Source: an uncultured Pseudomonadales bacterium (lineage in GTDB: Bacteria > Patescibacteriota > Microgenomatia > UBA1400 > PJMF01). From it: a stretch of 64,000 nt of DNA. The notes beneath the pieces are model-generated. The model ran no database searches, was not told the origin of the DNA, and worked only from the letters and a program-made list of their open reading frames with translations. The number at the start of each line of letters is the position of its first letter. The stretch's first letter is position 1. Positions 9,199-64,000 of this stretch are shown one piece after another. The position numbers were made by a program, and so were the translations under genes. Location: contig CAYOQI010000001.1 of assembly GCA_964406075.1 (NCBI GenBank), positions 197,015 to 261,014 on the forward strand, read 5' to 3'.

Positions 9199-10236
9199 TT
9201 AAAAAATCCTACGGATTTTTGCCCAAATACGAAGGAATTTCCAACGAATATTCTCTGCAAAACGATAGAAAGAATAAATCGGCGGATTTAGTACAAGATC
9301 GTATGTTCCGAGAAACTCATAGAGCTGAGGTCCATAGCCTTCTTTGAAACGATGAAAGCCATACCACGGATCTTTTTCATTCGGATTTGGCCCTAATGCT
9401 CCCCACATATCAAACTTTTTTAATCCCATACTTTTTCCAAATTTAATAATTTCCCACATCATCAGATTACTCGCCATCACATCTCTATGTTCAGAACTTG
9501 AAGCTCCGTATGGATAATAAAGAGTATCGCCAAAAATAAACACAATCCAACTTACCAGGGGCTTCCCTTCGTAATGTGCCTCAAAAATACGCATCTGACC
9601 GGACTCACCCATTTGATCCCACATTTTTCTAAAATAGGTTTGATTGTGAGCGTAAAAACCTTGGCGTTTGGTCGTCTCAGCTAAGATATTGAGATGAGTC
9701 TCAACTCCTTCTTTGGTCGAGTTTTCAAAAATCTCAACACCCTTTTTTTCAGCTAAATTGACGTTGTACCGAGTCTTTGATTTCATGAGCTCCATCAATT
9801 TTTGTTCAGACTGGGTCAGATCTAAAATAAAGGTATAGCGAGTGAAAAGCGCCTTACCTGGCTGACAACCATGCTCAGTCAAAAAATCTGAAATAGCTTG
9901 ATGTCCAGATGGATGTCCTATTTCTTGAGCAATATTAGGTTCCAATTTGATTGCAATTGCATTGTGACGTTTTCCTAATTGTTGAAGACCCGTGAGCTGC
10001 TCCTCATCCGGCATATAGCCTTTTGGAAAATAGCCCATCGTAAAAGAGGTGTTCGGAATTTTATGAAAAAAGACCTGAATCACTCTTTTCATTTTTCCAT
10101 TGTCAAAATATCCCACCCGCTCAACGTCGGTCGTATCATTTTTTTTGAACTCTCCCCATTGCCATGACTGCAGAGGATGACCGGCTAAGTCATTGTGAAG
10201 CTTTTGATCTTCGAGAGTGAGGACGCGCAAAATCAT
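9199..10236 (-). CDS. FemAB-family peptidoglycan bridge-formation (aminoacyl)transferase
   Basis: Length and motifs resemble FemX/FemA (YHAHNQTYF, YYPYGASS, MWEIIKFGKSMGLKKFDMWGA). Start placed at MILRVLTLED. Confidence 0.75.
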   Translation of the reverse strand: MILRVLTLEDQKLHNDLAGHPLQSWQWGEFKKNDTTDVERVGYFDNGKMKRVIQVFFHKIPNTSFTMGYFPKGYMPDEEQLTGLQQLGKRHNAIAIKLEPNIAQEIGHPSGHQAISDFLTEHGCQPGKALFTRYTFILDLTQSEQKLMELMKSKTRYNVNLAEKKGVEIFENSTKEGVETHLNILAETTKRQGFYAHNQTYFRKMWDQMGESGQMRIFEAHYEGKPLVSWIVFIFGDTLYYPYGASSSEHRDVMASNLMMWEIIKFGKSMGLKKFDMWGALGPNPNEKDPWYGFHRFKEGYGPQLYEFLGTYDLVLNPPIYSFYRFAENIRWKFLRIWAKIRRIF

Positions 10237-55952: not shown

Positions 55953-56210
55953 TTAAAACGTCAGGAGGAAAATTATTGTCCCTGCGAGTAGTGCTGCAAA
56001 AAGATACTCTTTTACAATGGCCGTGGTGAGGTGACTTGACTTGACGTGAGTTAAAATTCCCCAGAAAAAATACATGGCTGATAATGATCCCGCCACAATT
56101 CTCATTCCCGGTCTCGACGGCCACAAGGACAGAAATGCAATCACATGTCCAACCAGTAACACAATCAGAATGGCATATGCAAATTTATGTCGAGATATTT
56201 CATTAAACAT
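55953..56210 (-). CDS. small membrane protein (85 aa, 3 TM)
   Basis: Hydrophobicity pattern. Last gene of the co-directional fibre-locus string. Confidence 0.45.
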   Translation of the reverse strand: MFNEISRHKFAYAILIVLLVGHVIAFLSLWPSRPGMRIVAGSLSAMYFFWGILTHVKSSHLTTAIVKEYLFAALLAGTIIFLLTF

Positions 56211-56259: not shown

Positions 56260-57342
56260 CTACGCTCCCACTACTCCACCTTTAAAGAAAATAATGAGAA
56301 ACAGGATCGTGATAAAAAGAGCAATGTGAGCAAAATTTTTCCCTACAAACCGAATCGTATTCAATTTTTCGATCACCATCGTATCGTAAATCAAGACGGC
56401 AATGACCAACAGCACGAGTGCCAAAAAGACCGCTTTTGAAAGGTGGAGAGGTGAAAAAAGTGGTGGACGTTCGATGTTTTGAATATACTCGACACTTTCT
56501 CTAAAAAGTTCTGGCGTGGCCAATACTTCAGGCTGTGCTTCCTCACTATTTTCTGTCATCACGGGCGGTTCCTGATCTTGACCGACAACTTCGTCGACTT
56601 GATTGATCACATCTTCTACTGCTTGCTCAGGATTTACCATTTCCCCAGTGACTTCATCAATAGCAGCTAAGGCTTGGGAATTTGCAACTGGAGCAGTCGT
56701 AGCTACAGGTTGAGGTGTTTTTTGCGGAGTGATCGCTCCCGTTCTACGAGTCGCGGCTGTACTTCCAAACATTTGAACTACCAACGTAGTCTCTGTTCCA
56801 TTGAGCACTCCATCGACCACCGCAATTCCAATTTCTTTATATCGAGTGTTCACAATATTTTCTTTATGGGTTGGCGAATTCATCCATGCTCTCATCATGT
56901 CTTCCGATTCCATAAAATCACGCGCCAGGTTTTCACCTGCAATAGTGTAACGATAGCCTGCCGTCTTCATGAACTGCCAAGGCGTTTTCCCTTTCGGCGA
57001 ATAGTGTGCCCAGTATTGATCAGCAAACATATCTCTGGCTTTGGCCAGTGCGGCATCACTCAGTTGTTTGTTGACGACTAATTCTCCCGTTCCAGCTTTG
57101 ACCCGTTCTTTATTGGTCAGCTCTACCACTTGAGTAGGAGTAATCGATGAAGAGTAGCCTAAAATTGTTCCTTGTTCAGACGACACACCACGAAGAATTC
57201 CGACTCCAGATCGAAAAATAACGACCAACAATAACAGAACTAGAAAACCTTCTGGATGCAAAATCCTCGGCCGATGATTATTCGAATGCCGAGGATGGAA
57301 AAGATGGGCAAATGTTTCAAAAACTTGCATGAATATATCCAT
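56260..57342 (-). CDS. CAP/SCP (YkwD-like) domain protein flanked by N- and C-terminal TM segments
   Basis: LTNKERVKAG...ARDMFADQYWAHYSP...AGENLA...AWMNSPTHKENI matches YkwD-type CAP domains. Start placed at MDIFMQ, because the track start at 57393 uses the CAT of an R1 repeat. Confidence 0.8.
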   Translation of the reverse strand: MDIFMQVFETFAHLFHPRHSNNHRPRILHPEGFLVLLLLVVIFRSGVGILRGVSSEQGTILGYSSSITPTQVVELTNKERVKAGTGELVVNKQLSDAALAKARDMFADQYWAHYSPKGKTPWQFMKTAGYRYTIAGENLARDFMESEDMMRAWMNSPTHKENIVNTRYKEIGIAVVDGVLNGTETTLVVQMFGSTAATRRTGAITPQKTPQPVATTAPVANSQALAAIDEVTGEMVNPEQAVEDVINQVDEVVGQDQEPPVMTENSEEAQPEVLATPELFRESVEYIQNIERPPLFSPLHLSKAVFLALVLLVIAVLIYDTMVIEKLNTIRFVGKNFAHIALFITILFLIIFFKGGVVGA

Positions 57343-57387
57343 TATGCTGAATTTTTTATCTGAAAACAAGGTATTTTTACAGTGTAA

Positions 57388-57420
57388 TGTCATCCCGACC
57401 GAAGTGGAGGGATCCCTGTC
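57388..57420 (+). repeat. R1-family hairpin repeat, short form
   Basis: TGTCATCCCGACCGAAGTGGAGGGATCCCTGTC. Confidence 0.65.
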
Positions 57421-57476: not shown

Positions 57477-58820
57477 TTAATTAATGCGAAATCTACGAAC
57501 TAACCCACGCCCCAACCAGCTCCCAATTCCTACTCCTCCAGCCAATAACCAATACCACTGACATAACCAGTGTAACCATGAGCCTGGTTCACAATCACAG
57601 CTACTTAACGTATAGAAAAAGTAAATGGAAGTCAGAATGAAAATAAAATCGGCACCAAGATGGAATGAATGTATTTTTTTTCGGAGTAATACATGATTTG
57701 CACCGTGACCAATTGCTTGTAGTAATAAAATAATGAGCGCCAGCCACATTCCATCCTGAGCACACTCCATCACTTCAGTCGCACTTGTTCCTAAAATAAA
57801 CGGAATAACTCCTGACAGAAATGGTTCTGGAGTGGGTGAGGGTTCGATTACATCTCCTAGTACTTCCCCATCGCTAAATCCAAGTGGAGCAGTAAAGGCA
57901 CCTGCAATAGCCGGTTGTCCTGTGGTCGCAACTTCATTCGATCGAGGTCCCGGTGCACATCCATTTATACCGAGTACTTGAAAGTAGTATTGAGTATTTG
58001 GAGTTAAGCCTGAAACTGTATAACTGGTCACATTGCCAACACTATTATTTCCAAATAAATAAACACCTGGTTGGACGCCAAAATTAATAGCATATGTCGT
58101 GACTGGTGAAACTGCTGACCATGCCAACGTCACTTGTCCATTCGCATTCACAATTCCCGGCACAAAAAGTTGAGGGGCAGAACTGGGTAGTTGATCGGTA
58201 CACGGTAGAGCAAAAGCATCCGTTGTCGTTCCGGCTACTGAGTTGAATGAGGTCGATGAAGTGGTTGAAATAGGCGTAGGTGTTGGAGGAGTCGGAAATG
58301 GTGTTAATTGAACTGCTACTTCAACATCAAATACGGTCTGTTTACCTTGAAATTGATTTCCCGAACTTGGATCAAATGTCGCAATGAACGCATATGTTTG
58401 AGTTTGTTGAGCAAGCAGGGGAGAGTAGGAGAGTAAGCTGGAAGAATTTAGTAAACTTTCCAAACTCTGAGAACTCATCACCACTTCCCCACTTTCTGTG
58501 TCTTTTCGAATTTCTATAAAAATTGCTGATGCCAAAGATTGATCGGTGACACCACTTGAACCCATCGCTTGCCAAGCCGGATACAAGGTCTCATTGGTCA
58601 TATTCGTAATAGCGAGGTGTTGAACAAATCTATCACCAGGTAATGTGTTCGTTTCTGAGAAAAGTTGGGCATTTGATGGAGTGATCACACAATCATCAAT
58701 TTCATTTGAACCAAAACAGATGACAGACAAATCTTGGCTTTGTGAGGATGCAAAAATCGGCTTGGTGAATCCAATGTAAAAAATAAAAAGGAAAATGAAG
58801 AAGGAAAAAAATTTAGGCAT
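57477..58820 (-). CDS. secreted TasA-like domain + Pro/Thr linker + fibronectin type III domain + Cys-rich 3-TM C-terminal anchor
   Basis: Signal peptide ...KPIFASS. LPGDRFVQHLAITN and GNQFQGKQTVFDVEVAVQ match the TasA/camelysin hallmarks PGD and QG...F.F.A.Q. FN3 signature VTLAWSAV...YTVSGLTPNTQYYFQV. The hydrophobic C-terminus contains CDCEPG/WLC. Confidence 0.65.
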   Translation of the reverse strand: MPKFFSFFIFLFIFYIGFTKPIFASSQSQDLSVICFGSNEIDDCVITPSNAQLFSETNTLPGDRFVQHLAITNMTNETLYPAWQAMGSSGVTDQSLASAIFIEIRKDTESGEVVMSSQSLESLLNSSSLLSYSPLLAQQTQTYAFIATFDPSSGNQFQGKQTVFDVEVAVQLTPFPTPPTPTPISTTSSTSFNSVAGTTTDAFALPCTDQLPSSAPQLFVPGIVNANGQVTLAWSAVSPVTTYAINFGVQPGVYLFGNNSVGNVTSYTVSGLTPNTQYYFQVLGINGCAPGPRSNEVATTGQPAIAGAFTAPLGFSDGEVLGDVIEPSPTPEPFLSGVIPFILGTSATEVMECAQDGMWLALIILLLQAIGHGANHVLLRKKIHSFHLGADFIFILTSIYFFYTLSSCDCEPGSWLHWLCQWYWLLAGGVGIGSWLGRGLVRRFRIN

Positions 58821-58890: not shown

Positions 58891-58911
58891 ATCTTGAATC
58901 TTAGATCTCAG
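58891..58911 (-). repeat. Heptad array; plus strand reads ATCTTGA ATCTTAG ATCTCAG
   Basis: Read directly. It overlaps the stop codon of 58908..59855. Confidence 0.6.
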
Positions 58912-59855
58912 TTTTGCCAATCAAGTGGAAACGTCAGAGTATCTGTAATTTCTTGATTGTTCAGTAATTCCAACGTGACGGTCAAGCCAGCGACTTCCAG
59001 GTGAGGATTGCAACTCTGTTCATCTTCGGTGCACGTCCCGACATAGACATCTGGCATTTCAAACTCACCAAACGCATCTCGTTCTATCTGATTGGTTACA
59101 ACTTCCTCCACTGTTTCTCCATCTTTGACATGAGTATAGGTAAAGGTTTGCTTGATCGAGGTAACCTCATCATTCATCAACACTTGAGAAAGTAAGAACT
59201 CTCCGAGCTGAGTAACTTTGACTCCTTTTTCATTCATCAATACTTTTTCGTATATTTCAGTTGCTCCAGCTTCTGTCTGTGCCCCTTCAAGAATTTGTGA
59301 ATAGGTTGCTGGTTTTTCACCGGTGATCATAGCGACATCTTGAAATCCACCTAAGACTTCACCTTGCCAAGCCTCAGCCATAATTTTCACTTCACATGCA
59401 TGTGTATTGTCAGGATAAATTAATTGGTACCACCACTGCGTTTCTTCTTCAGACAGTAAAGAAAATGCTTGTCCTTGCTCTTCAGCCAGAGAGAGTGCAG
59501 TCAGTTTTCCAGAAAAAAGTGGAGTATCATCCGAACTGTTTTTCCATACCTCGATGTTAATACCTTCACAATTCACATCAGGATCGGGAGTCACTTCCCC
59601 CACAATCCGATACACAAAAGGTCGAGATCCAATATTTTTCACCATAAAACTTGAACGTTCGTTTTGAGGGGAATCTGTTACTGCTAATCTTGAAAGGTTG
59701 GAAGTCAAAGAGGTAACTTCTATATCCAGTGAACCTGTTCCCCACTGACTCACTTCTCCAACTTCCCGATCATGTGAGTACGACAATGTAGTTGGGATGA
59801 GTATGCTCATGACCAACGCCAACATGCCAGTAATTCGAACAATATGTTTTTTCAT
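58908..59855 (-). CDS. secreted protein with a divergent TasA-like N-terminal domain and an extra C-terminal domain
   Basis: Signal helix, then SHDREVGEVSQWGTGSLDIEV (compare FSDTETSxxNxFxAGSIDL). The later CEVKIMAEAWQ resembles the F.F.A.Q end motif. Confidence 0.5.
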   Translation of the reverse strand: MKKHIVRITGMLALVMSILIPTTLSYSHDREVGEVSQWGTGSLDIEVTSLTSNLSRLAVTDSPQNERSSFMVKNIGSRPFVYRIVGEVTPDPDVNCEGINIEVWKNSSDDTPLFSGKLTALSLAEEQGQAFSLLSEEETQWWYQLIYPDNTHACEVKIMAEAWQGEVLGGFQDVAMITGEKPATYSQILEGAQTEAGATEIYEKVLMNEKGVKVTQLGEFLLSQVLMNDEVTSIKQTFTYTHVKDGETVEEVVTNQIERDAFGEFEMPDVYVGTCTEDEQSCNPHLEVAGLTVTLELLNNQEITDTLTFPLDWQN

Positions 59856-59950: not shown

Positions 59951-59999
59951 ATCTACTAAATACCAACTACTAATTACTAATTACTAATTACTACTTTCT
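59951..59999 (-). repeat. Heptad array with three perfect tandem AATTACT units
   Basis: ATCTACT AAATACC AACTACT AATTACT AATTACT AATTACT ACTTTCT. It overlaps the last codons and TAG stop of the signal peptidase gene. Confidence 0.8.
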
Positions 60000-60843
60000 T
60001 TTCTCCACCATCAATATGAAGAACGTGATTCATTTTTTGTTTCGCAAGTGTCTTCATGCTCAAAACAGGTGCCGGATTCAGTCGATGCGATTCGAGAGGT
60101 ATGAACGTAATCGGTTTTCTCGGTCGTCGAATTGAAACATCAGTTTCCGCAATGCTCCCAGCTTTTTTTGCTTCAACATGTTTTTTAACAACATGATGAA
60201 CGGCTACAGGCGTTTTAATTTTCGGTGTTTCGCCTACCTGTTTTCGACCTTGGGTGATGATCACCATTTGTTTGCCTTCAGCTTTCCATCCACTTTTGGG
60301 TTCCCGTTTTATCATTTTCACTACTTCACCTTTTATGGCGATCAATTCTGAATACAGCAAAATTGTTGCAGGCACCACGATCATGATGATGAATCCCATT
60401 TGTGTTTGAGCAAACGAAATAATGCGTCCGACATACGGAAGGTGAACAAACACTTTCCCCACCACTCTATTGGCTGGGATGACTTCCCGATCTATTTCTT
60501 CATTAGCATCACCTTTGAGCGTGTATTGAGGAGCACTTCCTTCTGTTTTTGAAACGATTCGATGCGTGACTGTTTCTGTCGGATCTTTCGCTCCTTGTAC
60601 CGTGATCACATCATTCACGGCATATGTTGACTGTGGCATCACAATCACCAAGCTTCCCATTGAGATGGCCGGCTCCATTGAGCCTGACAGCACCGCAAAA
60701 AGTTTTAGTTTAAAAGGGGTATTAATTGTTGAAAGAACAATCACTGCAGCCACCAAAACCATCAGCAAAATAAAGAGATTGTAGGAAATTCCTACAGCTC
60801 CTTTCACTACATTCGCCGGTGTCACTTTTCTGCCTGTTTTCAT
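59977..60843 (-). CDS. sipW: signal peptidase I, ER/archaeal (SipW) type, with a basic C-terminal tail of about 118 aa
   Basis: N-terminal TM segment, LSGSMEPAI (catalytic Ser box), THRIV (His box), KGDAN and a second TM segment. The tail covers residues 171-288. Confidence 0.85.
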   Translation of the reverse strand: MKTGRKVTPANVVKGAVGISYNLFILLMVLVAAVIVLSTINTPFKLKLFAVLSGSMEPAISMGSLVIVMPQSTYAVNDVITVQGAKDPTETVTHRIVSKTEGSAPQYTLKGDANEEIDREVIPANRVVGKVFVHLPYVGRIISFAQTQMGFIIMIVVPATILLYSELIAIKGEVVKMIKREPKSGWKAEGKQMVIITQGRKQVGETPKIKTPVAVHHVVKKHVEAKKAGSIAETDVSIRRPRKPITFIPLESHRLNPAPVLSMKTLAKQKMNHVLHIDGGEKKVVISN

Positions 60844-60850
60844 CCTATAT

Positions 60851-60913
60851 TCTTAAAATCTCGCTTCCTGTTTCTTTAATCTCTCATCTTAATTTTAACT
60901 GACCGTTACTAAC
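60851..60913 (-). repeat. Heptad array of about 9 units; plus strand reads TCTTAAA ATCTCGC TTCCTGT TTCTTTA ATCTCTC ATCTTAA TTTTAAC TGACCGT TACTAAC
   Basis: Read directly. It fills the intergenic region between paralogue P1 and sipW. Confidence 0.6.
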
Positions 60914-61784
60914 TCCCCGTTAAATCAGGATTACACACAAAGTCAGGGTTGTTTCTAGATTGTTCCGCATAGAAAGACACGTTTCCTTCCATACTATCTG
61001 TCTGTGACACATTCGTCACCAATATTCCTTCACACTCTAAGCCAGTCGTATTTCGGATCATCGGCCCTTCTGTTGTGAGATTATCTTGAGTTACTACTGG
61101 ATCAAGTGGCGCAAGTTCACCATAACACCATGCTTGTCCGATAAAGTACTCTTCCTCACCGGTCACTGGACCGGTAAAGTCATCCCCTGGTCCCGCCGTG
61201 CTTGCTTTCCAAATATTCAATGTTGTATCTGCGAGTGGGAAACGAATCCCGCCATTGTCATCACCTTGCAAAAATTCGGAAGCTTTTCCTGCAATCAAGA
61301 AACCGTCAGCTTCATTTTCTTCCAAAACGTTATCTCCATCATCTGCCCAGAACATATAGCTCAACTCGTCATCAAGTTCGCCATCCCAATTGCCATTGGC
61401 AAGATCATCACCGTCGTTCGTTTCAGGAGTGGTTGCGACATTTTCCGCAGCACCCGTGAGCTCGATATCCATACACAAGTATGAATCGTTGTCATCCACT
61501 CGTAAACTAATAGTATCCTCGGTCATGTCTCCGGGTTTGAAATCTTCAAGGTTAAAAAAAAGTTCATCTTCTAAATCCGTCAGGGACCAAGTACTTGCCG
61601 AAATCGAAGACACCAGTCCATCTCGGATCAGATAACTCGCATTACCAACTTTTAGATCAATTGATCCTGCCACAAATGTATTATTGGAAGAAGTCTCTGT
61701 ATCAGAGAAAAACGCTTGTGTGCCAAAGATGAGGGCACTGATCGCACCGACAATCAACACTCCACTTAAAAGTATTCTTCGCAT
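60909..61784 (-). CDS. TasA/camelysin-like secreted protein with a SipW-cognate-type signal (paralogue P1)
   Basis: MRRILLSGVLIVGAISALIFGTQAFFSDTETSSNNTFVAGSIDL, FKPGDMTEDTISLRV and SQTDSMEGNVSFYAEQSRNNPDFVC. Four Cys are conserved with P2 and P3. Confidence 0.8.
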   Translation of the reverse strand: MRRILLSGVLIVGAISALIFGTQAFFSDTETSSNNTFVAGSIDLKVGNASYLIRDGLVSSISASTWSLTDLEDELFFNLEDFKPGDMTEDTISLRVDDNDSYLCMDIELTGAAENVATTPETNDGDDLANGNWDGELDDELSYMFWADDGDNVLEENEADGFLIAGKASEFLQGDDNGGIRFPLADTTLNIWKASTAGPGDDFTGPVTGEEEYFIGQAWCYGELAPLDPVVTQDNLTTEGPMIRNTTGLECEGILVTNVSQTDSMEGNVSFYAEQSRNNPDFVCNPDLTGS

Positions 61785-62022: not shown

Positions 62023-62820
62023 TTAGGGTGCTACCTCAAATAACTCATCATTGCAGACAAATTGATTATTATTTCGATTTTGCTCAGCATAAAAAGTTAA
62101 ATCGCCGACTAATCGATCCGTTTGACTCAAATTACTTACCGGTGTTCCATCACATCCGTAACCTGGACCATTGATATCATTGTTGACTGAGAACTCTCCG
62201 TAGCAGAATGCTTTTCCGATTTTATAGACTTGTCCAGCATCGAGATCATCACCGGTACTATTTGTGAAAATGTTTTGCGTTGTATCTGCCAAAGCATACG
62301 TCGCTCCATCTAAAATATCACTGGCTGTGCCGGCTAAAAATGGTACTTCATCAGGATCTTGTTTATTGTTGTTGTGTAATTCCACCCAGAATCGAAATTG
62401 CAGATTTTCTGCTAAATCTCCATCGGGTGTGCCATCGGCATTATCAAGAAGGCTATCCATCATGTCTTCTGGCTCAGTAAAAGTGCTGTCAGAATTTTCG
62501 GTAAATTTTACATTCGCACATGCCCAAGCTGGATTGGTATCGACTTTGATACTAATGGTGTCATTTCCCCAGTCACCCGGTTTGAGATCAGTAAAATTGA
62601 AGAACTTCTCTACTCCAGTCAAGTCTTTGAGTTCCCAACTCGTTGCGACTGAAGGATTTCCAAGATAGACGCTTTCATTTCCGATTTGTAAATCAATTGC
62701 ACCAGTTTCAAATACATTCTCTTCGGAAGTTTCTGTATCAGAGAAAAACGATCTTGTTTGACTGACCAGTGCTCCTCCGATGATTGTGATAAGAAGCAAG
62801 CTGGTAAGTATTTTTTTCAT
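62023..62820 (-). CDS. TasA/camelysin-like secreted protein with a SipW-cognate-type signal (paralogue P2)
   Basis: MKKILTSLLLITIIGGALVSQTRSFFSDTETSEENVFETGAIDL, LKPGDWGNDTISIKV and SQTDRLVGDLTFYAEQNRNNNQFVC. Confidence 0.8.
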   Translation of the reverse strand: MKKILTSLLLITIIGGALVSQTRSFFSDTETSEENVFETGAIDLQIGNESVYLGNPSVATSWELKDLTGVEKFFNFTDLKPGDWGNDTISIKVDTNPAWACANVKFTENSDSTFTEPEDMMDSLLDNADGTPDGDLAENLQFRFWVELHNNNKQDPDEVPFLAGTASDILDGATYALADTTQNIFTNSTGDDLDAGQVYKIGKAFCYGEFSVNNDINGPGYGCDGTPVSNLSQTDRLVGDLTFYAEQNRNNNQFVCNDELFEVAP

Positions 62821-62880
62821 AGTACGTTGGGTGACGTAAATTTTATAAATTTGTAATGTGAAGTGTCTCGACTTGTGACT

Positions 62881-62901
62881 GCGGGCGCCCTTGGCGCCCG
62901 C
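62881..62901. other. GC-rich stem-loop between fibre paralogues P3 and P2
   Basis: GCGGGCGCC-ctt-GGCGCCCGC (9-10 bp). A T-run follows only on the plus strand (AATCTTTTT), whereas both neighbouring genes are on the minus strand. Confidence 0.6.
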
Positions 62902-62922
62902 AATCTTTTTCCAAATTTCTAC

Positions 62923-64000
62923 TTAATTTTCAAAATCAAAAACGGTGTTGTTACCTAACACACCAAGGGTGAACTTATCAATGTTTCCAGTGAAACCATC
63001 AGCATATGGTTCTCCTGCTCGGAAACCCCAGTGAGAGTCAGTCACTCGAACACGAACACTTGGATAGTCAGTTAAGATCTGTGTCCAGGTCTTAGGAGTT
63101 GTTCCAGGTTGTGCATTTGGAGCTGGCCAATTTGCACCTGAATATAACCATTGGGAACTTCCAAGAGCATCCCATTCTTGCCAAGTATCTTCTGAAACAC
63201 TACCGTTGGCACTTGGAACATAAACTAGACGACTCTGCCAAGTATCACTCAAGTTAAAATCAACGTTGAAGTTCAGATAGATTGCTCTTGTAGAAGCACC
63301 TGGATTTGAACTAGGTTGATATGTATTGAACTTCAGTGTGGTGATGTTCGCTAAAGGTGTTCCGGAAAACTGATATGTCGCTAAATTACGACGTTGAGTT
63401 CCAGAAACACTCATTTGAACACTGCCTGTTCCTGCTGGAGGAGTTCCAGGTCCTGCCACAAAGCTACCTAAAGTGGTATCCACTGTATCAGTTTCATCAT
63501 TATAAAAAACCCAATTGCTTGCACTTGGAGTTGCATCAACCGAAGTCACTTCCACGATTGTGTCCGGACTTGCACTCGGTGACGGACTCGGGCTTCCACT
63601 TGGTGATGGGAATAATGAATCCTCACATTGAAACTCTTCATTGTTTCGAGTTTGCACTGCGTAGAAAGACAAGTTTCCAACTAAGCGGTCTGATTGAGCA
63701 ATGTTGGTTGCTTCAGATCCATCACAAGTGTATCCAGGATTTGTAACAACATCACCTGAACCTGGTGCAACTGCGCCTAATGTTAAAGCTCCAAAACACC
63801 ATGCTTTCCCAATGTAGAATGACTGTTCGGCAGGAATACCTGCTGGGACAACTCCACCTACATTATTTTCATCTGAATCAGCAAGGGCGAGAGTTCCACC
63901 AGTTAAAACACCAGAAGCGGGTCCTTCTACAATAAGTGTTTCACCTGTCTCATAGACATTGTCGCCATCATCGTTCCAGAAAGCGAAATTGAGTTCATCA
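62923..64000 (-). CDS. TasA/camelysin-like protein (paralogue P3) with a Pro/Ser linker and an extra C-terminal domain of about 215 aa; 5' end lies beyond the window
   Basis: The track 'M' at 63672 is an in-frame TTG. I translated 63999..63673 with no stop codon: DELNFAFWNDDGDNV...SFYIGKAWCFGAL...SQSDRLVGNLSFYAVQTRNNEEFQC aligns with P1 and P2. The linker SPSGSPSPSPSASP follows, then an unrecognised domain. Confidence 0.75.
   Translation of the reverse strand, partial: DELNFAFWNDDGDNVYETGETLIVEGPASGVLTGGTLALADSDENNVGGVVPAGIPAEQSFYIGKAWCFGALTLGAVAPGSGDVVTNPGYTCDGSEATNIAQSDRLVGNLSFYAVQTRNNEEFQCEDSLFPSPSGSPSPSPSASPDTIVEVTSVDATPSASNWVFYNDETDTVDTTLGSFVAGPGTPPAGTGSVQMSVSGTQRRNLATYQFSGTPLANITTLKFNTYQPSSNPGASTRAIYLNFNVDFNLSDTWQSRLVYVPSANGSVSEDTWQEWDALGSSQWLYSGANWPAPNAQPGTTPKTWTQILTDYPSVRVRVTDSHWGFRAGEPYADGFTGNIDKFTLGVLGNNTVFDFEN

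Follow-up and report, generated by a model that had tools for sequence, protein, structure and literature searches.

How a fibre of the TasA type is fixed to the cell is, to our knowledge, unsettled even in Bacillus subtilis, and the only integral-membrane anchor that we know to have been proposed for such fibres is TafF, in a 2025 haloarchaeal model. The question arises afresh in a stretch of 64,000 nucleotides (nt) from an uncultured member of the Patescibacteriota (contig CAYOQI010000001.1, positions 197,015 to 261,014), referred to here as the window, where a protein that we call P5 is encoded sixth in a co-directional row of eight genes on the minus strand, behind three TasA-family genes, a SipW-type signal peptidase gene and the gene of a secreted protein, P4 (Table 1). 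An original prediction, drawn from the letters of the window, had seen in P5 the possible membrane-embedded base or anchor of the fibre. This is still the best-supported reading, on account of synteny, a TasA/AbpA-like fold and a portable three-helix anchor, and at slightly better than even chances we take P5 to be the membrane-anchored terminal (basal) subunit of the TasA-type donor-strand fibre encoded in the same operon. Domain composition, fold similarity, family distribution, synteny, charge bias and Cys covariation were computed in this work, and topology, disulfides, the direction of strand exchange and the anchoring function itself are inferred.

The P5 gene is preceded, 8 nt upstream of its start, by the Shine-Dalgarno sequence AAGGAGA, and a protein identical to P5 is already on record in NCBI-derived data (P0001). 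In order, P5 consists of a signal peptide, a beta-sandwich of ~150 amino acids (aa) that we call the N-domain, a Pro/Thr linker, an FN3 domain, a second linker and three hydrophobic C-terminal helices with clustered Cys, called the C-module below. The original prediction had this order right, as judged by translation of the open reading frame, Pfam, an AlphaFold model and hydropathy, and every string that it quoted was located in the translation: LPGDRF (residues 60-65), GNQFQGKQTVFDVEVAVQ (154-171), TPFPTPPTPTP (173-183), VTLAWSAV...YYFQVLG (230-284), EPSPTPEP (326-333) and SSCDCEPGSWLHWLCQWYW (406-424). The full architecture is kept in 18 full-length homologues at 31-50% identity, which argues that it is not a product of chance, and the alignment of these homologues holds 36 invariant residues, all eight Cys among them; the Cys would fall into four extracytoplasmic pairs (C35-C44, C207/C288, C353/C410 and C408/C420). 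When P5, 18 N-domains and 18 C-modules were scanned against Pfam and NCBIfam, FN3 was the sole significant family. A hydropathy peak at residues 4-26 (maximum Kyte-Doolittle value 1.87) and a family consensus with V-x-A directly before G-T-D-L (I-F-A at the site of P5 itself) bear out the predicted signal peptide, which appears to be of the canonical Sec/signal peptidase I type; the model of SipW-type signal peptides, TIGR04088, finds no match in P5, whereas the neighbouring subunits match it.

The N-domain resembles known fibre subunits in its predicted fold. It features an invariant C35-C44 hairpin, a PG motif (61-62), N73 and a C-terminal N-x-[YF]-Q...F-D strand (155-165), and its alignment-based AlphaFold (AF2) model is a beta-sandwich with a predicted local distance difference test score (pLDDT) of 83.9 and a predicted template modelling score (pTM) of 0.81. 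Foldseek against the PDB gave AbpA (7UEG chain A) as the top match (E=1.8e-4, prob 0.99) and the highest TM-score for TasA (5OF1/5OF2; TMq 0.50, prob 1.0), so that a TasA-like fold is indeed predicted. No Pfam or NCBIfam family covers residues 25-172; TIGR04090 (BsaA) is weakly matched by 1 of the 18 N-domains (E=0.03), and a match of the last two strands to the FctB basal pilin (3KLQ; E 0.4-0.8) was treated as noise. Among the profile-profile tests of TasA likeness made with hhalign, support came only from the compact TasA-like major subunits of sister cassettes, against which a 33-sequence N-domain profile reached E=2.3e-5 (prob 76%, 119 columns) and an earlier, less diverse profile E=2e-4. 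That alignment spans the region from the P-L-F-x-E-x-N-x-x-P-G motif to the G-N-x-Y-Q-G...F-D strand and starts only past the C35-C44 hairpin; the C-terminal strand motif common to the N-domain and the TasA-like proteins was also matched by hidden Markov model (HMM) (E=1e-5 and 7e-4). A mixed 6-sequence alignment left the TasA likeness unsupported, comparison with the TasA paralogues of the window was not significant (E=0.13), and an N-domain HMM run against the proteins of the window found P5 alone to be significant. A 45-sequence profile of the window's TasA family fails to recover B. subtilis TasA itself from the PDB, and the weak sequence signal between the N-domain and TasA is therefore not strong negative evidence. 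As modelled, the N-domain is TasA-like at the fold level, is not a member of PF12389 as that family is defined, and is probably homologous to the TasA family; the "TasA-like module" of the original prediction, its weakest part, stands for the fold and falls for the family profile.

The order of TasA-like subunit(s), S26/SipW-type peptidase, P4-type protein and P5 was found in 9/9 distinct loci examined (the window, L001, L002, L003, L005, L006, L008, L010 and L011; L004 is the same contig as L001), and where there is enough flank P5 is followed by a CAP-domain gene and then by an 85-aa gene. In five of the nine loci (L001, L002, L008, L010 and L011), the P5 homologue overlaps the upstream P4-type gene by 4 nt, which suggests that the two are translationally coupled. 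The TasA context itself is real, because many of the 945 homologues of the neighbouring 291-aa subunit, mostly from Patescibacteria, are named TasA family, M73 family or SipW-dependent signal peptide protein; TasA homologues in Patescibacteria have been noted before (PMC9245690). The 265-aa paralogue shares 44% identity with the 291-aa subunit, the third paralogue carries the C-terminal motif of the family, SFYAVQTRNNEEFQC, and the SipW-type peptidase matches the SipW model NF046067 with E=2.5e-26, under the equivalog cut-off. By analogy, the whole is a cassette of an already known kind, that of TasA/Taf-type donor-strand fibres.

Which part P5 might play in such a fibre depends on the strand that each subunit has to offer. 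The donor strand of B. subtilis TasA is residues 28-38, which SipW cleavage leaves at the very N-terminus (PMC9674648). The TasA paralogues and P4 carry a donor-equivalent segment (FFSDTETSSNNTF / YSHDREVGEVSQW) ahead of a G-S-[IL]-D-[LI]-x-V strand, the neighbours' N-termini reading A-F-F-S-D-T-E-T-S-x-N-N-T-F ahead of G-S-I-D-L, with ~14-16 extra residues; in a motif alignment, the mature N-terminus of the P5 family starts at G-T-D-L-x-V-x-C, 0-5 residues before the first core strand. Since this donor segment seems to be missing and the invariant C35-C44 pair locks the first strand, P5 is most likely an acceptor only, without a free N-terminal donor strand. The same synteny and fold would also suit a membrane-bound nucleator or assembly platform beside the SipW-type peptidase, which would template the first subunit while the fibre grows away from it, P5 either offering its N-terminal strand in the manner of TapA or opening the groove of the subunits as they arrive. 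For TapA, both nucleation of TasA through a donated strand and co-localisation with the membrane have been described (PMC10151520, PMC9674648), and P5 has 30-36 residues before the PG motif against 34 in B. subtilis TasA, so that its first strand could in principle be a donor. We nevertheless regard a nucleating P5 as unlikely: (i) C35-C44 holds the first strand in a hairpin; (ii) this strand is modelled inside the domain's own sheet; (iii) the N-terminal FFSD...NTF segment of the donor-competent proteins of the operon is missing from P5; and (iv) the P4-type proteins are better suited to the role of TapA or TafC.

The P4-type proteins range over the loci from 315 to 1358 aa (338-1358 aa in sister loci), most of them with a lamin-tail domain (LTD, Pfam), and their N-termini are mostly SipW-type or TasA-like (A-x-F-[TFY]-S...N...G, or that of the window P4 itself), followed by other domains. 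In phmmer, P4 matched the proteins encoded at 3874-7950 of L005 (E=9e-10) and at 8247-10004 of L001 (E=6e-4). By analogy with TapA and TafC, such a build would suit a tip or nucleator. TapA, offered by the original prediction as the functional analogue of P5, proved ill suited for comparison: its fold is that of Ig, no membrane span is left once its signal peptide has been cleaved, and it acts where the filament starts, by donating its N-terminal strand (PMC10151520), whereas P5 has a TasA-type jelly roll and a predicted integral-membrane part, and shows no evident donor strand. TapA (6HQC) is missing from the 50 best Foldseek matches of the N-domain, and it gave no PDB sequence match. Homology to TapA was rejected on the different fold and the lack of a membrane span in TapA, which is a functional neighbour of P5 and not a relative.

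At its other end, P5 has the features of a folded membrane domain. AlphaFold places helices at residues 348-378, 384-405 and 415-445 (pLDDT of the block 64-84), and over 129 aligned modules the mean hydropathy is 1.76 for the first transmembrane helix (TM1), 1.59 for TM2 and 1.28 for TM3; together with charge bias, this predicts a membrane-embedded C-terminus, and the three helices and clustered Cys/Trp (C408, C410, C420, W422) of the original prediction are all present. Averaged over the same modules, Lys and Arg together number 3.0 in the TM1-TM2 loop and 0.09 in the TM2-TM3 loop. With a cleaved signal peptide, a basic first loop and a non-basic second one, the module would lie N-out, with TM1 running out-to-in, TM2 in-to-out and TM3 out-to-in, and C-in, a topology that therefore places C353, C408, C410 and C420 at the outer face. 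These four Cys are present or absent in the patterns CCCC (76 modules), C-C- (49), ---- (3) and --C- (1), so that C408 and C420 are gained or lost jointly without exception, and C353 and C410 likewise with one exception. The pattern points to two disulfides, C353-C410 and C408-C420, on the outer face of the membrane, and gives the topology independent support; a metal-binding Cys4 site was rejected, since strict pairwise loss fits two disulfides better. The C-terminal tail is acidic in most members and ends the module with a conserved, predicted-cytoplasmic Y-x-x-[IL]-E. The C-module has no match in Pfam, NCBIfam or PDB sequences, SMR transporters at E~2 in the PDB search being noise.

Between the two ends, linker 1 varies in length and sequence across the family alignment and has pLDDT <50 over residues 174-203. 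The FN3 domain of the original prediction is secure: PF00041 matches residues 224-299 (E=1.1e-8, 35.6 bits against a gathering cut-off of 25), pLDDT is 84-93 over residues ~211-300, and Foldseek of the full model leads to FN3 structures (E~4e-8, prob 1.0), in keeping with the seven-strand FN3 beta-sandwich. C207 and C288 appear as a covarying pair, both present in 58 of 63 aligned FN3 domains, both absent in 5 and single in none. In the stalk that follows, P312-x-G314...V320-L321-G322 and a second motif, G-x-[VI]-[LA]-G, ending at G344, flank an acidic, Pro-rich spacer of low complexity (consensus P-x-G-F-x3-[EQ]-V-L-G for the first motif), and the second Pro-rich linker that had been predicted is found here (EPSPTPEP at 326-333; pLDDT <50 over 323-351). 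Conservation in the 63 aligned sequences is 59 for P312, 58 for G314, 57 for V320, 62 for L321 and 61 for G322, and G344 is kept in 126 of the 129 modules. Both motifs recur in the giant proteins P0052, P0055, P0068 and others, and P4 holds QGEVLGG directly after its TasA-like part (residues ~163-169). A V at -3 with a G at -1 would fit the signal-peptidase site rule.

Such motifs raise the thought that the C-module is a sorting or processing signal, likened to LPXTG/sortase or PGF-CTERM/archaeosortase systems, with [EQ]-V-L-G or G-x-V-[LA]-G cleaved and the ectodomain released or passed to the wall. The extreme conservation of the motifs just outside TM1 (G344 126/129, L321 62/63), the fact that many large surface proteins end in the module and a dedicated peptidase gene two genes upstream all speak for it. 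We still hold it to be very unlikely, since (i) the known signals (LPXTG, PEP-CTERM, PGF-CTERM, GlyGly-CTERM) consist of a short motif, one helix and a basic tail; (ii) at ~100 residues and three helices, with polar and aromatic residues conserved inside the membrane and with Cys that covary in two pairs, the module suggests a stable, folded domain; (iii) the cassette has no conserved sortase-like enzyme; and (iv) giant proteins bearing the module also occur without a nearby peptidase (L007). The NCBIfam sorting-domain models match neither P5 nor the 18 C-modules, and a classical C-terminal sorting signal was rejected on the three helices and the lack of a cognate enzyme. A broader proposal, which we judge quite unlikely, is that FN3, the twin VLG motifs and the disulfide-stapled module form a lineage-wide device of Patescibacteria for attachment and for recognition or processing by a dedicated partner; the VLG sites, the intramembrane Gln and the Y-x-x-[IL]-E tail would be the recognised features, and the candidate partner is the SipW-type peptidase, cleaving V-L-G. 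Such a device would span the range from the fibre base (P5) to adhesin-like giants of 2500 aa and, if real, would be a new counterpart of the sortase and archaeosortase systems.

The distribution of the C-module shows how far it travels. An exhaustive profile search returned 127 cluster representatives at E<=1e-3 among 1.84 billion, with the module always at the extreme C-terminus, and together with family members found before, 139 proteins were classified: 57 are P5-type, with the N-domain present; 57 exceed 620 aa, reaching 2469 aa, with beta-helix, Ig-like, SpaA/SdrD, Golvesin and propeller passengers; and 25 are others, comprising 15 fragments of <=200 aa and 10 mid-size proteins without an N-domain match. 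The family is rare and known only from metagenomes, and full-text searching of the literature found no paper describing it. The module terminates giant adhesin-like proteins of 1000-2500 aa as well, usually with the Cys-bearing FN3 and the VLG motifs directly upstream; one giant is a stand-alone gene (L007), and another lies directly behind a TasA cassette (L008). Ahead of the L005 cassette lies the gene of a 638-aa protein with SpaA-like, FN3 and divergent three-helix tail parts. Conversely, the N-domain occurs with other tails: in a Beckwithbacteria TasA locus (L013, 12273-12941), a 222-aa protein joins it (E=3.9e-29) to a basic tail rich in His, Lys and Trp, directly after an LTD gene and in the gene position that P5 otherwise takes, with a sortase gene nearby, and L003 encodes an extra 215-aa paralogue (9394-10041) with the N-domain and a single C-terminal TM helix. 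Because the N-domain is found with other tails and the anchor on other passengers, the N-domain appears to be the cassette-specific part and the FN3/three-helix cassette a portable anchor. The FN3 and three-helix parts that the original prediction had connected with the fibre are thus present, but they are not specific to fibres. As a separate observation, the FN3/three-helix cassette of P0139 (446 aa) follows a SipW-type signal peptide (…HAYFTSGN…) and an N-terminal domain other than that of P5; the protein may be a hybrid of secreted subunit and anchor.

A portable anchor would also allow P5 to be an independent surface adhesin or receptor, whose jelly roll binds a glycan or a host surface and whose gene merely travels with the TasA cassette. 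The many unrelated adhesin-type passengers on the same anchor, including the stand-alone gene of L007, agree with this, as do the carbohydrate-binding and CUB jelly rolls that Foldseek also returns (E~2e-3). The N-domain, however, sits at one fixed position of the cassette in every locus, even where the anchor differs, its gene often overlaps the upstream one by 4 nt, and the top structural matches as well as the profile match point to fibre subunits, all of which makes an independent adhesin an improbable account of P5.

Judged by its published description, the closest known analogue of P5 is TafF (HAH_0238) of Haloarcula hispanica, which has a Sec signal peptide, a pilin-like N-domain of ~140 aa and three C-terminal TM helices (PMC11821415, PMC12337348). 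TafF is proposed to terminate and anchor tat-fimbriae, and in an AlphaFold model it accepts the donor strand of TafA, a role that its authors describe as genetically untested (PMC11821415). The original prediction could not name the architecture of P5; by analogy with TafF it can be named, as P5 likewise has a Sec-type signal peptide, a pilin-like N-domain of ~140-150 aa and three C-terminal TM helices. The gene clusters also agree in a dedicated S24/S26 peptidase (TafD, SipW-type), in major and minor pilins and in a multi-domain tip (TafC, P4/LTD). They differ in that (i) P5 is bacterial and its pilins use Sec, whereas Taf pilins use Tat; (ii) in P5, FN3 and two long linkers separate the pilin-like domain from the membrane part; (iii) its membrane module has covarying Cys pairs and is common to giant proteins; and (iv) the genes of TafG (DUF5305) and TafB are missing from the P5 cassette. 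No obviously haloarchaeal protein was found by the exhaustive C-module profile search, which returned only proteins of non-halophile type.

Other systems resemble that of P5 in part. The TasA/TapA/SipW system of B. subtilis (5OF1, 8AUR-type fibre) likewise combines TasA-family subunits, a SipW-type peptidase and an accessory anchoring or assembly protein, and the P5 N-domain shares with TasA the jelly roll (Foldseek) and the PG and N-x-Y-Q-G...F-x-F motifs, although P5 reaches neither PF12389 nor the SipW-type signal-peptide model. The AbpA/AbpB bundling pilus of Pyrobaculum calidifontis provides, in AbpA (7UEG), the best structural match of the N-domain, and its operon encodes proteins with a signal sequence and further TM helices that have been suggested as possible pilus anchors (PMC9245690); in contrast to the P5 cassette, the system is archaeal and has neither a dedicated peptidase nor FN3, and its putative anchors are uncharacterised. 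PapH of P pili and FctB/SpaB of sortase pili are, like the proposed P5, minor pilin-like subunits that are added last and fix the fibre to the envelope, but their folds and machineries are others (chaperone-usher, and sortase transpeptidation to the wall), whereas P5 would use its own membrane domain.

As a basal subunit, P5 would act as follows. Its Sec signal peptide would be cleaved off, leaving the protein N-out/C-in; the disulfide-stapled three-helix module would retain it in the cytoplasmic membrane, and the two flexible linkers and FN3 would form a stalk across the envelope. The distal TasA/AbpA-like jelly roll would join the fibre made of the three secreted TasA-family subunits, which would be processed by the SipW-type peptidase of the operon. 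By accepting the donor strand of a subunit only, P5 would cap and tether the cell-proximal end of the fibre, and the P4-type protein, with its TasA-like N-terminus and adhesin-type domains, would be the distal tip or nucleator.

Several points weigh against this assignment of P5: (i) the Foldseek TM-scores of the N-domain are modest (0.36-0.50), and generic jelly rolls (CUB, CBM35, CPE-C) follow close behind TasA and AbpA, at E 2e-3 or worse; (ii) at thresholds as loose as E<=10, PF12389 matches neither P5 nor any of the 18 N-domains, N-domain profiles found nothing significant among PDB sequences, and hhalign of the N-domain with the 45-sequence TasA-family profile mentioned above was not significant (E=0.15 and 0.031); (iii) the anchor cassette is also carried by proteins outside any TasA cassette (L007), and by itself says "surface protein" and not "fibre"; (iv) the argument that P5 lacks a donor strand is drawn from a short motif alignment; (v) binding of P5 to the fibre is a prediction; and (vi) the role of TafF is itself model only. 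In addition, the 945 TasA-family homologues compare with only 57 P5-type representative clusters, and two Patescibacteria TasA loci are without a P5-type anchor, L012 having none and L013 the unanchored N-domain protein described above; a P5-type anchor is therefore not a general requirement.

Table 1. Features of P5 and of the surrounding operon (coordinates are positions of the window)
Feature	Coordinates	Strand	Size or residues	Basis or remark
P5 open reading frame	57477..58820	minus	447 aa	ATG start
P5 signal peptide	58749..58820	minus	residues 1-24	MPK, 15-residue hydrophobic core, TKPIFA|SS; hydropathy, family consensus
P5 N-terminal beta-sandwich	58305..58748	minus	residues 25-172	AF2 model, Foldseek, hhalign
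P5 linker 1, Pro/Thr/Ser-rich	58209..58304	minus	residues 173-204	pLDDT, family alignment
P5 FN3 with Cys-bearing N-terminal extension	57921..58208	minus	residues 205-300	Pfam, Foldseek
P5 post-FN3 stalk	57765..57920	minus	residues 301-352	Family alignment, pLDDT
P5 three-helix Cys-rich membrane module (predicted)	57480..57764	minus	residues 353-447	AF2, hydropathy, charge bias
P5 TM1 (with Q368)	57687-57752	minus	residues 357-378	Preceded by C353, followed by basic loop
P5 TM2 (with F402-Y403)	57600-57659	minus	residues 388-407	Followed by C408-x-C410 and short loop
P5 TM3 (with C420, W422-Y423)	57504-57572	minus	residues 417-439	Followed by predicted cytoplasmic tail
Third TasA-family paralogue, cut at window end	62923..64000	minus		In-frame translation open to window edge
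TasA-family paralogue	62023..62820	minus	265 aa	PF12389 E=4e-4, TIGR04088 E=1.5e-3, both just under cut-off
TasA-family subunit	60909..61784	minus	291 aa	PF12389 28.4 bits vs 22.5; TIGR04088 26.2 vs 19
SipW-type (archaeal/ER-type) signal peptidase I	59977..60843	minus	288 aa	TIGR02228 81.4 bits vs cut-off 51.85
P4, secreted, TasA-like N-terminal region and extra C-terminal domain	58908..59855	minus	315 aa	phmmer; no family match
CAP/YkwD-domain membrane protein	56260..57393	minus	377 aa	PF00188 E=6.8e-17
Membrane protein adjoining the CAP gene	55953..56210	minus	85 aa	No significant family match

The remainder of the operon offers observations of its own. The third TasA-family paralogue continues, past a Ser/Pro linker, into an extra C-terminal domain of ~220 aa without a family match, and the fibre may thus carry a decorated subunit. 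In the 102-nt gap between the first and second TasA-family genes, a perfect 10-bp GC-rich palindromic hairpin (62880-62902; TGCGGGCGCC-AAG-GGCGCCCGCA on the minus strand) lacks a U-tail on the operon strand, with a T-run on the plus strand; judged by its sequence and place, it might serve as an attenuator or a stabiliser and so fix how much of the first subunit is made relative to the products of the downstream genes. The SipW-type peptidase has a Lys/Arg-rich C-terminal extension of ~100 residues that is missing from the 187-236-aa orthologues of most sister loci, and L010 has a 281-aa gene at this position. The CAP protein has orthologues in L001-L006 (E=1e-81 to 1e-103), as does the 85-aa protein, and in L010 and L011 a CAP-domain gene after the P5 homologue and an 85-aa gene occupy the same positions. 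Beyond these two genes, the window and several sister loci share a conserved block with rmlD-like, trmD, NDP-sugar epimerase/dehydratase and GT2-GtrA genes. Neither the CAP nor the 85-aa gene was counted as a fibre component, both being better conserved than P5 and running into the sugar-nucleotide/trmD block; the CAP protein may be only a syntenic neighbour of P5, and the CAP/85-aa/sugar block may either serve the fibre, for example by glycosylation of the Pro/Thr linkers, or reflect mere synteny. The L005 cassette (SipW-type peptidase, 1358-aa P4-type protein, P5, CAP and 85-aa genes) lies on DASPLQ010000012.1 (1.41 Mb), a metagenome-assembled genome labelled "Vitreimonas sp."; since the cassette is of the typical Patescibacteria type, this alphaproteobacterial label looks doubtful.

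To conclude, what is new at this locus would be a basal-subunit candidate with a portable, disulfide-stapled three-helix anchor that is common to giant surface proteins of Patescibacteria, every functional statement on the P5 family being an inference. In this bacterial family, a pilin-like domain keeps a fixed position in the operon while its anchor is exchanged between three helices, a single helix and a basic tail, which makes it a concrete, testable candidate for the basal subunit. The family also suggests that the solution of a pilin-like terminator with its own membrane anchor arose in both domains. Patescibacteria are mostly episymbionts whose attachment to the host is poorly understood, and a single C-module profile could pull both giant surface proteins and fibre bases from their genomes.

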